Below are positions 52,791 to 54,119 of a stretch of 64,000 nucleotides of DNA, one piece after another (the stretch's first letter is position 1; each line of letters begins with the position of its first letter). The stretch covers positions 1,419,757 to 1,483,756 of the forward strand of contig OY969414.1 in assembly GCA_963699155.1 (NCBI GenBank). The letters are read 5' to 3'. Made by a program: the position numbers and the translations under genes. Origin of the DNA: an uncultured Chlamydiales bacterium (GTDB taxonomy: Bacteria > Chlamydiota > Chlamydiia > Chlamydiales > JAAKFR01). The notes beneath the pieces were generated by a model. It did not search any database, had not been told where the DNA came from, and worked only from the letters and a program-made list of their open reading frames with translations.

Positions 52791-54119
52791 TTAACGGGAT
52801 TTGTTTTTTGGGCGCCACTCTTTGGGATCAGTGCCGTCAATGAGAGGGGCTGTTTGAGCCTGCAACATCTGTTGAAGGGCTTCTGTGGCAGTTTCACAAC
52901 TGTCAATCCAATTTTTTATTTTATCCAGATTGTCCGCTGTATATCCGGGATTGAATGGGTTACCGACCCCAGCAAACTTCAAATTCACACCTGTCATCCG
53001 GCCCGCTAACATTTGGATGGCGGTCATCATCATCTCGCTATTGTTAAAGGCACCGCATCCCCATGCCCCAGTAATCAGAAGGGAGTCAGAAGGATTGGCC
53101 AGCTTTTCGGCCCGGCAAGCCAGATAGGCTGCTTCGAGATGAAATCTGAGATCGGCTTCAGAATAATGCTCTAGGGAGTTTTTATCCCAGTGTTTGGCAA
53201 CGATGGCGACTATATTAATCTTCGGACCTTTAGGAGCACTCTTCACAAAATCAGCGATCTCCTCGGGCTCTTTGTCATACATTTGGCGAGCATAGATTTC
53301 AGTTGAGATCTCCCATTCGCGCTCTACATGGGTTACAAGGAAAGGTTGGTGTCTTCCAGATATTCGATCGAAGGGTTGTAATGGAGTTTTTGTTTTTGCA
53401 GCCAAATAGGCCATCAATGCCAGTTCGGGAATTTCACAGAACATTCTCTCTTCCTGAACATTGCCCTGGGCGCGCCATCCCCCTCCGATATCTTCAGCAG
53501 CGAAATCGACATTGGTATGGCTAGCTTCCTCATAAGTAAACCACTTTTCAGAAGTTGCCACGTTGATGGGAGAGAGAGGGGATGATAAATGGTCATCATT
53601 GACGAGTTTAAGCTGAGTATAAGTGCGGCTTACACTCGTAAGAGATTTCAGAGAAGACTCTCCAATAGTTGCTTCTAGTAAAGCCTTCTTCTGTGGCTGA
53701 ACTGTCTTTTCTGTTACCCAAGTCATAAAAGCTGCGAAATCGAACTTAGGACATTCCAGTTCCACGGTATCGATCTGACAAGCATCACCCATTGGAGCTT
53801 CAGGAGCGGCGAGTTTCACTGGAGTTTCAGGAGCTGCAGGTTTCACTATGACATCTGCTGGTCTCTCCACTGACGAGGTGGAGTTACACATTTTGACCAA
53901 GCTGATAACCAATGGGATAAGTGCTAACATTCCTGCTCCAGCCGCTCCATAGAAATAGAGATCGATTCCTCGTGTAAAATAGAGCCCCAAAACAGCTGCA
54001 GCTGATAGAGCCAATAAAATTCCGCACACCAGCGCGGTGATCTTCCAACCCTTTTTGGGGTGTTCCCCAATAATCACAGGTGGTTGCCCTTGATCTAAAC
54101 TCACTTTTCCTAATGACAT
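52791..54119 (-). CDS. Membrane-anchored (Inc-like) poly(ADP-ribose) glycohydrolase (PARG)-family protein
   Basis: Bilobed hydrophobic N-terminus; VDFAAEDIGGG-x7-QEE...PEL; TGAWGCGAF; IQMLA. Confidence 0.88.
   Translation of the reverse strand: MSLGKVSLDQGQPPVIIGEHPKKGWKITALVCGILLALSAAAVLGLYFTRGIDLYFYGAAGAGMLALIPLVISLVKMCNSTSSVERPADVIVKPAAPETPVKLAAPEAPMGDACQIDTVELECPKFDFAAFMTWVTEKTVQPQKKALLEATIGESSLKSLTSVSRTYTQLKLVNDDHLSSPLSPINVATSEKWFTYEEASHTNVDFAAEDIGGGWRAQGNVQEERMFCEIPELALMAYLAAKTKTPLQPFDRISGRHQPFLVTHVEREWEISTEIYARQMYDKEPEEIADFVKSAPKGPKINIVAIVAKHWDKNSLEHYSEADLRFHLEAAYLACRAEKLANPSDSLLITGAWGCGAFNNSEMMMTAIQMLAGRMTGVNLKFAGVGNPFNPGYTADNLDKIKNWIDSCETATEALQQMLQAQTAPLIDGTDPKEWRPKNKSR

Follow-up and report, generated by a model that had tools for sequence, protein, structure and literature searches.

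A gene on the reverse strand of a 64,000-nucleotide stretch of the genome of an uncultured Chlamydiales bacterium (GenBank assembly GCA_963699155.1, contig OY969414.1, positions 1,419,757 to 1,483,756, referred to here as the window) encodes a protein in which a bilobed hydrophobic hairpin, of the kind that characterizes chlamydial inclusion membrane (Inc) proteins, is joined by a Pro/Ala linker to a catalytic domain of the canonical poly(ADP-ribose) glycohydrolase (PARG) type. The fold and motifs make it nearly certain that this domain is an ADP-ribose glycohydrolase. In the explanation favored here, which is given about an even chance, the hairpin-PARG protein would be exported through the type III system with its polar N-terminus as signal, the hairpin would insert in the membrane of the vacuole (inclusion) around the chlamydia, and the C-terminal enzyme, tethered by the linker, would face the host cytosol. 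There, with E224 serving as the acid/base, it would cut the ribose-ribose bonds in poly(ADP-ribose) (PAR) chains of the host and so remove signals that depend on PAR in the vicinity of the vacuole; such are the secretion, topology, substrate and benefit to the bacterium that we infer for this protein. Considered separately, PAR is a likely substrate, by a comfortable margin over even, and export with vacuole anchoring is likely but unproven, its chances being slightly better than even.

The identity of the domain is established by both family profiles and predicted structure. Residues 180-386 match the Pfam family PARG_cat_C (PF05028) at 72.9 bits, where the cut-off is 26.3 (E 3.7e-20), the only such match in a profile search of the 2.40-Mb genome, and no second Pfam family is matched at E <=0.1, including DUF2263, Macro and PARG_cat_N. 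A match to PARG_cat_C alone at this threshold means that there is no match of the DUF2263 (bacterial) type, which settles the hidden Markov model (HMM) comparison proposed in an earlier, sequence-only reading of this DNA. When PDB sequences were searched with phmmer, PARGs alone were matched, with human PARG the best (E 4.2e-7, 32.7 bits), and the alignment pairs VDFAA with VDFAN, GGG..QEE with the same motif, PEL with PEL, TGAWGCGAF with TGNWGCGAF, and the region of IQMLA with IQILAA. An AlphaFold2 model built on a 137-row alignment (A3) has a mean predicted local distance difference test (pLDDT) score of 86.4 and a predicted template modelling score of 0.77, with pLDDT >90 over residues 112-440. 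The top Foldseek matches to the model are canonical PARGs (4epq, E 1.6e-15; human PARG, ~1e-14), with bacterial-type PARGs at 1e-7 to 1e-6, and VIA-align returns a similar order: Tetrahymena PARG (4epq) at Z 24.5 with 297 residues aligned (model residues 87-435), human, mouse, rat and fly PARG at Z 20.3-21.9 (~290-300 residues), Thermomonospora PARG at Z 17.0 (232 residues, from model residue 141), Deinococcus PARG at Z ~15 (210-220 residues), and plain macro domains at Z ~12 (~160-190 residues). These rankings indicate a PARG macro fold of the canonical kind with its N-terminal extension, and the PARG domain and Glu-Glu signature that the sequence-only reading had recognized are borne out by the profile, alignment and structure comparisons.

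Comparison with solved enzymes shows where the protein follows the canonical type and where it departs from it. Shared with canonical PARG (Tetrahymena thermophila 4epp/4epq, human 4b1h) are the macro fold and N-terminal extension, the GGG-X7-QEE signature, the equivalent of Asp737, the GxWGCGAF loop and the PEL motif. The differences are an identity of 17-21%, an Ala at the Asn740 position, the lack of a regulatory N-terminal region and of a PARG_cat_N sequence match, a membrane-hairpin N-terminus, and a bacterial organism whose nearest found relatives are bacterial as well. The bacterial-type PARGs of Thermomonospora curvata (3sig) and Deinococcus radiodurans (5zdb) have the signature and the class of catalytic mechanism in common with the protein (Z 15-17), but the absence of a DUF2263 family match at E <=0.1 and the weaker, shorter structural match (214-232 residues, starting only at model residue 141-153) set them apart, and these shorter alignments imply that the canonical-type N-terminal extension has no counterpart in them. 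The description 'eukaryote-like' given to the domain in the sequence-only reading therefore holds in the sense of the canonical type (PF05028, not DUF2263) but fails as a statement of kinship, because the closest relatives that can be named are all bacterial.

In the account of human PARG given in PMC3519477, the role of acid/base falls to Glu756 and the 2''-OH is held by Glu755, while the relay is supported by the buried Asp737, the 3''-OH of ribose'' is in contact with Asn740, and the diphosphate sits in the Gly871-Phe875 loop; a passage of PMC8120803 gives the PARG signature as GGG-X6-8-QEE. The signature is present as G212-G214, seven residues and Q222-E223-E224, and both the buried aspartate (D205) and the phosphate loop (G351-F358) are in place. 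In the filled cells of the 137-row alignment, E224 is conserved in 134/134 rows, Q222 in 132/134, G354 in 132/133 and G356 in 133/133, and F206, Q222, E224, A308, G354 and G356 are kept in all 32 aligned chlamydial proteins (alignment A5). Y276 is nearly invariant in the family; around human Tyr795 (the Tyr-clasp) and Phe902 (adenine stacking) the sequence alignment is unreliable. The Asn740 equivalent is lacking: the protein has A208 in a family column of N 79, D 24, H 16, A 9 and S 3 of 134. With D205, E223/E224, the GGG and the phosphate loop kept, the enzyme looks catalytically competent with one altered substrate contact, since the Asn740 position is a contact to substrate and not a catalytic residue.

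The replacement at A208 nevertheless weighs against the favored explanation insofar as the handling of substrate may differ without the Asn that contacts the ribose 3''-OH. One alternative is that the protein is exported and vacuole-anchored but acts on a substrate other than PAR, such as mono-ADP-ribose or another conjugate (of protein, ubiquitin or nucleic acid), or serves in binding or recruitment only. Consistent with this are the loss, in a column that varies across the family, of the residue that holds the distal ribose in human PARG, the low identity to solved PARGs noted above, and the degenerate motifs of some members, for instance P0006. However, the protein retains the Asp, both catalytic Glu residues, the GGG and an intact phosphate loop, all of which hardly vary across the family, and the closest structures are all PAR-specific enzymes. 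An exported protein with another substrate or a binding role is considered unlikely.

The N-terminal part of the protein has the organization of an Inc protein. The ORF (open reading frame) starts with ATG, and the next Met, residue 64, lies within the second hydrophobic helix. The two hydrophobic helices span residues ~27-48 and 53-75 with the five-residue loop TRGID between them; the 19-residue Kyte-Doolittle cores are at 27-45 (2.40) and 60-78 (1.96), and the AlphaFold2 helices at 23-50 and 59-78, in agreement with the hydrophobic hairpin placed at ~25-78 in the sequence-only reading. Upstream, hydropathy is <=1.5 up to residue 23 and pLDDT is <50 for residues 1-21; by analogy with Inc proteins, where this is the usual position of the type III secretion signal, residues 1-26 may carry the signal here. 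Downstream, pLDDT falls below 50 at residues 81-86 and 97-110 of the linker. The motifs quoted in the sequence-only reading (VKPAAPETP/VKLAAPEAP, VDFAAEDIGGGWRAQGNVQEERMFCEIPEL, TGAWGCGAF and IQMLA) are all present in the translation, the Pro/Ala linker among them. Incs are recognized by two transmembrane (TM) segments with a short loop of <30 residues (as set out in a passage of PMC3048545), an arrangement that the two helices and their loop reproduce. The genome is chlamydial and has a type III system, as judged from two TLC-type nucleotide (NTT) transporters (759.9 and 622.5 bits), a HrpJ/CopN-family type III gatekeeper (56.2 bits), and closest relatives in Chlamydiae metagenome-assembled genomes (MAGs); the Inc-type hairpin in a chlamydial genome, as first proposed, is thus borne out. 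The features of the gene and its neighbors are collected in Table 1.

Table 1. Features of the hairpin-PARG gene and of the adjoining island (window coordinates).
Feature	Position	Strand	Basis
Hairpin-linker-PARG ORF, 442 aa + stop	52791..54119	-	ORF list and translation
Residues 1-26, polar non-hydrophobic N-terminus, no Sec-type signal peptide	54042..54119	-	hydropathy, pLDDT
Residues 27-75, bilobed hydrophobic hairpin, two helices and loop TRGID	53895..54041	-	hydropathy, AlphaFold2
Residues 76-111, low-complexity Pro/Ala linker, imperfect repeat VKPAAPETP/VKLAAPEAP	53787..53894	-	sequence, pLDDT
Residues 112-442, PARG catalytic region: predicted macro fold, canonical-type N-terminal extension, C-terminal helical part	52794..53786	-	PF05028, AlphaFold2, Foldseek, VIA-align
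Residues 204-208, VDFAA; D205 = human Asp737, A208 at human Asn740 position	53496..53510	-	alignment
Residues 212-224, GGG-WRAQGNV-QEE, PARG signature, Glu pair E223/E224	53448..53486	-	alignment
Residues 350-358, TGAWGCGAF, diphosphate-binding loop	53046..53072	-	alignment
Two downstream Inc-like paralogues (51682-52722, 50315-51685), shared two-helix N-terminal module, TM cores 33-51 and 74-92	50315..52722	-	hydropathy; no Pfam family above cut-off
Transposase, helix-turn-helix (HTH) and rve_3, weak IS481 leucine-zipper match, inside island	48841..50118	+	Pfam

A precedent for this layout exists in Chlamydiaceae, where Dehoux et al. 2011 (PMC3048545) reported macro domains for 20 proteins put forward as Incs. 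According to passages of that paper, the macro-domain Inc candidates include CT058, CPn0034, CPn0367/0369/0370 and CPn0524, none was found in Protochlamydia amoebophila, and CT058 itself is a 367-aa protein with transmembrane segments [26-48]5[53-76] whose N-terminus directed type III secretion when assayed heterologously. The hairpin spacing of the hairpin-PARG protein is the one tabulated for CT058, and the two proteins have in common a short N-terminus, a hairpin at ~26-76 and then a ~300-residue ADP-ribose-handling domain of macro fold. The domain of the present protein is, however, PARG-type and not MacroD-type, so that only the layout is shared, and judged from sequence the protein would work like the CT058 group without being a member of it. 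Consistent with this, no Macro match is found in the protein, and profiles of the PARG clade found nothing in the chlamydial family f3 (genomes of 1.0-1.4 Mb), even at E <=1, in searches that had no positive control (alignment A1, 0/29, with genome G005 unscored; A5, 0/5). DUF648 was considered as a link to the macro-Incs of Chlamydiaceae and was ruled out (hhalign probability 0.09).

Those relatives of the hairpin-PARG protein that can be named are bacterial. A word-index search of 5.8 billion clusters returned nothing but the protein itself. With residues 115-442 as query, an exhaustive HMMER search gave 422 cluster representatives at E <=1e-3, 48 at <=1e-10 and 10 at <=1e-30, the best non-self match being 42% identical. 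The 150 best library proteins all score at least 44.9 bits, against 32.7 bits for human PARG, and every one that can be named is bacterial. Eukaryotic PARGs are matched no better by representatives of the other clades (Microcoleus, 25.1 bits; clade B, 26.2; Simkania-type, 20.5). The look-alikes in a protein atlas, at 0.76-0.77 and useful as leads only, are all PF05028 clusters, of which two consist mainly of bacterial proteins and the third mainly of eukaryotic ones. Among species-representative genomes, a 10-row alignment query with confirmation by tblastn located 249 loci that encode relatives. The top six are in Chlamydiae MAGs and one further MAG, and one of these six carries the depositor's label 'Chlamydia trachomatis', yet has an identity of only 30% and derives from an environmental bin. 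The remaining loci belong to Planctomycetota, Chloroflexota, Cyanobacteriota (Microcoleus, Tychonema), Myxococcota, Gemmatimonadota and others. PF05028-type homologues are widespread in free-living bacteria (loci L008-L081), with Microcoleus/Tychonema, Chloroflexia, Planctomycetota, Myxococcota, Gemmatimonadota and Geobacteraceae among their sources. In passages of PMC8120803 and PMC4245714, canonical PARG is presented as a eukaryotic enzyme and the PARGs of bacteria as belonging to the DUF2263 type, and the 249 bacterial PF05028-type loci are not reflected in the passages of these two reviews that treat canonical PARG.

A sample of 401 genomes of the phylum, from 212 genera, searched with the PARG_cat_C profile, has matches in 32 genomes (that of the hairpin-PARG protein included) and 27 genera; by group, there are matches in 4/22 genomes of the protein's own family, 0/2 of its genus, 0/30 of family f3 and 0/69 of family f6. 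A quick maximum-likelihood tree of 112 bacterial domain sequences, which held no eukaryotic PARGs, places the protein in an all-chlamydial clade of 10 rows, with a support of 98 in the Shimodaira-Hasegawa-like approximate likelihood-ratio test (SH-aLRT), and two more chlamydial clades of 11 and 12 rows have the same value each. Seventy-two of the 77 non-chlamydial rows form one separate clade (support 99), and the remainder, three copies from Verrucomicrobiaceae plus two rows on long branches, lie elsewhere. PARG-domain proteins of cultured chlamydiae fall in clades other than that of the hairpin-PARG protein (L087 in genome G060, L093 in G053 and L110 in G235). Larger combinations of the domain also occur: P0111 (991 aa) has ankyrin repeats and PARG, P0094 (820 aa) has PARG and an Exo_endo_phos domain, and the 1375-aa chlamydial protein P0018, with its PARG domain at residues 274-555, matches an open frame at G068:C234.

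The N-termini vary across the family. With a crude rule (Kyte-Doolittle, 19-residue window, threshold 1.6, applied upstream of the domain only), the 30 best representatives comprise 10 with a hairpin, 4 with a single TM segment, 4 with a signal-peptide-like N-terminus and 12 with none; several of these 12 are fragments, and the rule overlooked an evident signal peptide in P0012. At ranks 49-150 (102 proteins) the counts are 2, 11, 9 and 80. The 37 ORFs cut from chlamydial loci, which include two duplicate pairs and five cut at the locus edge, give 4, 7, 2 and 24, and one of these five, L002, cut at the contig end, shows a further hairpin in its open frame. Among the 77 ORFs from other phyla there are 4 with a single TM segment and 73 with none. 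Hairpin and export-type N-termini were thus seen in chlamydial members only, with none in the 77 non-chlamydial homologues. The PF05028-type homologues of free-living bacteria share the Pfam family and motifs with the hairpin-PARG protein but are soluble, with a median length of ~338 aa, no hairpin or signal peptide in any of 77, and a clade of their own for 72 of them.

Inside the clade of the hairpin-PARG protein there is a signal-peptide subclade (loci L003, L005, L006 and L007; representatives P0009, P0012, P0019 and P0020), and the existence of this sister group in the same family implies that the PARG domain works outside the bacterial cytoplasm. On a 40-row tree, hairpin forms are spread over the deeper branches of the clade; the hairpin label requires 7 changes, at least 3 of them forced by starred branches, a number as low in 3 of 500 shuffles, and the signal-peptide forms require 2. 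This pattern fits, but does not prove, an early fusion of hairpin and domain with later replacements. The hairpin of P0001 can be aligned with that of P0006 position for position. QEE is kept in 11 of the 12 hairpin-bearing representatives, the exception being the degenerate P0006; P0066 lies outside alignment A1, and its sequence is present as L095 in A5, where Q222 and E224 are invariant.

The genomic setting of the gene is that of an accessory element. The genome is a single contig of 2,399,326 bases, 100% complete by markers, and the gene lies in a same-strand run that consists of dnaQ, an mqnA-like gene, a nucleosidase gene, a zinc-type oxidoreductase gene, the PARG gene and two paralogous two-helix genes, with gaps of 34 and 68 bases and a 4-base overlap of the last two. 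Five such paralogues are found in the window, all on the reverse strand (42625-43668, 45372-48581, 50315-51685, 51682-52722 and 61610-62926); they share an N-terminal module of ~100 residues, in which two hydrophobic helices are accompanied by the conserved loop LAQQGYxLGGIN, and have differing C-terminal parts that match no Pfam family. The PARG gene is flanked by conserved ABC-transporter and nucleosidase genes, and the syntenic site of a same-genus genome (G147) reads accA, ABC transporter, three copies of the paralogue and nucleosidase, with the PARG and oxidoreductase genes missing. This comparison marks the PARG gene as accessory and its surroundings as a variable island of genes of Inc-like type. 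The GC content of the PARG gene, at 46.7%, and its GC content at third codon positions (GC3), at 43.1% compared with 51% ± 8.3 for the ORFs of the genome, give no foreign composition signature.

A further question is whether the hairpin resides in the vacuole membrane or in that of the bacterium. In the second case, the protein would remain in the inner membrane of the bacterium, its two ends cytoplasmic, and serve the bacterium itself, for instance by removing ADP-ribose polymers or adducts set by ADP-ribosyltransferases of host, phage or toxin origin, or by acting on an endogenous modification. A hairpin leaves both ends on one side of the membrane and would also fit a bacterial inner-membrane protein with cytoplasmic ends; the counts of K+R and D+E around it (2/2 in the N flank, 1/1 in the loop, 3/2 in the C flank) do not decide between the two. 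PF05028 homologues are moreover common in free-living bacteria, where they are soluble and presumably cytoplasmic, 73 of 77 being without a hydrophobic N-terminus. Several other observations likewise weigh against vacuole anchoring. As reported in passages of PMC3048545, CT058, the one macro-domain Inc candidate looked at there, was seen on bacteria and not at the inclusion, and many putative Incs are not constitutively translocated. An Inc-like two-TM profile is in itself unspecific, as 93 of 2107 ORFs of the genome, FliQ included, fit a crude rule for it, and the cultured relatives, which lie outside the clade of the hairpin-PARG protein (Simkania negevensis in clade C, Protochlamydia naegleriophila in clade B), have no clear hairpin.

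Residence in the inner membrane is, on the other hand, at variance with the signal-peptide members inside the same clade, with the restriction of hairpins and export-type N-termini to chlamydial members, and with the position of the gene in a variable island of Inc-like genes, from which it is missing in the same-genus genome. No PARP catalytic domain was found in the genome, but the control genomes were silent too, which makes this absence weak evidence. Inner-membrane residence is rated an improbable alternative. What makes export and anchoring likely is the confinement of hairpins to chlamydiae, together with the sister forms that bear signal peptides, the setting in the island and the precedent of CT058; the localization of CT058 and the ambiguous charge pattern lower the chances.

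The same genome encodes a second protein of hairpin layout, ~91 kb before the window (G000:C1:1328131-1329282(-), equivalent to L133:1348-2499(-)). This 383-aa protein begins with a polar N-terminus and a hairpin (~24-75), from which a linker rich in Pro and Ala leads to a Macro domain of MacroD type (PF01661, E 1.8e-19) with NAAN...GGGGGIDG, an arrangement known from the macro-domain Inc candidates of Chlamydiaceae such as CT058. A 392-aa protein of hairpin-linker-Macro layout is present in an f3 genome. BLASTP aligns the hairpin-PARG and hairpin-Macro proteins with an E value of only 9, and this lack of sequence similarity indicates that the hairpin-linker-domain design arose twice. Used as a single query in five related genomes, the hairpin-Macro protein gave matches to the hairpin region only, with no counterpart found. 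De-PARylation is complete when a PARG acts alongside a MacroD homologue (PMC8120803, in a passage on these enzymes), and the hairpin-Macro protein could take off the last ADP-ribose left by the PARG. By extension, environmental chlamydiae might place a complete host de-PARylation module on the vacuole surface, made up of an Inc-anchored PARG, its fusion ancestral to its own chlamydial clade, and a separately evolved Inc-anchored MacroD-type enzyme, with local silencing of PAR-dependent host responses; this proposal is tentative and held to be rather doubtful. If true, it would represent the first bacterial secreted effector family with PARG activity, and PAR-triggered cell death as well as PAR-dependent ubiquitylation and trafficking would be silenced around the parasite.

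ADP-ribosylation by the bacterium itself could also be the target, the hairpin-PARG protein then being a metaeffector that reverses or limits the action of the bacterium's own secreted ADP-ribosyltransferase (ART) effectors. Chlamydiae can carry candidates for ART-domain effectors, such as pc1346 of Protochlamydia amoebophila, and the logic of a hydrolase as antagonist is known from toxin-immunity pairs (both from passages of PMC3482391). The case is countered by the lack of an ART partner in hand, PARP being the sole ART-type family searched for in the genome, by the absence of any ART gene next to the PARG gene, and by the activity of PARG-type enzymes on polymers, which ART toxins do not make. 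A metaeffector role is regarded as highly improbable, and action on host PAR from the inclusion surface is the explanation retained.

Viral macrodomains, those of coronaviruses and alphaviruses, reverse host PARP-dependent ADP-ribosylation, and for them the erasure of PAR by a pathogen is established. These macrodomains are named in a passage of the review PMC8120803. The concept of a pathogen's ADP-ribose eraser aimed at host signaling is shared with the function proposed for the hairpin-PARG protein; the viral domains differ in being MacroD-like, without a membrane hairpin, and not PARG-type. No paper was found that treats a PARG-domain effector of any bacterium, a PARG of chlamydiae or one linked to Incs, or the PARG-domain proteins of Simkania negevensis or Protochlamydia naegleriophila, in a search with most subscription journals and supplementary files outside its reach, and the word 'Chlamydia' occurs in neither PMC8120803 nor PMC4245714. 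Public records do label chlamydial relatives as PARG: an exact-sequence look-up returns 'poly(ADP-ribose) glycohydrolase [Simkania negevensis]' for CCB90078.1 and 'PARG catalytic Macro domain-containing protein' for PNK_0460 of Candidatus Protochlamydia naegleriophila, and 'hypothetical protein' for hairpin-bearing relatives. The statement in the sequence-only reading that no Inc-PARG had been described is thus right as to papers found, but has to be qualified by these labels and by the macro-domain Inc candidates known since 2011 (PMC3048545, in passages on Inc proteins), which together make the hairpin-PARG protein a variation on a known kind. If the favored explanation is true, PAR signaling would be a target of vacuolar bacteria in protist hosts, the macro-domain Inc observation of 2011 would gain a functional frame, and a small, tethered, canonical-type PARG would be available for biochemistry.

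Regulatory signals around the gene are inconspicuous. The 34-base gap that separates the ATG of the PARG gene from the gene upstream is AT-rich and without an obvious Shine-Dalgarno sequence, and promoter and terminator scans of 50000-57500 gave results at or below shuffled expectation, so that the transcription unit is not defined. The sequencing runs that contain the genome are three DNA runs of one soil study (shares 0.31, 0.07 and 0.07), with no RNA run listed.

Elsewhere in the window, flagellar-type export genes occupy 57634-59716 on the reverse strand and comprise FliO (PF04347), FliP (PF00813), a FliQ-sized two-TM ORF (58352-58681) and FliR, the last assigned from TIGR01400 with 124.9 bits against 54 bits for SctT. 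A dense, partly fragmented patch of insertion sequences at 10804-23694 contains several rve/HTH_21 integrase ORFs, two IstB-like ATPases, an ORF with a Mu-transposase-C domain and a DDE_Tnp_1 ORF. At 12203-14380 on the forward strand is the gene of a 725-aa ankyrin-repeat protein (Ank_2, E 3.6e-48) with a weak NCBIfam likeness, far below cut-offs, to Legionella Ank effectors. An NADH pyrophosphatase-type NUDIX gene of NAD/ADP-ribose metabolism, with NUDIX, NUDIX-like and zinc-ribbon domains, lies at 9004-9828 on the reverse strand.

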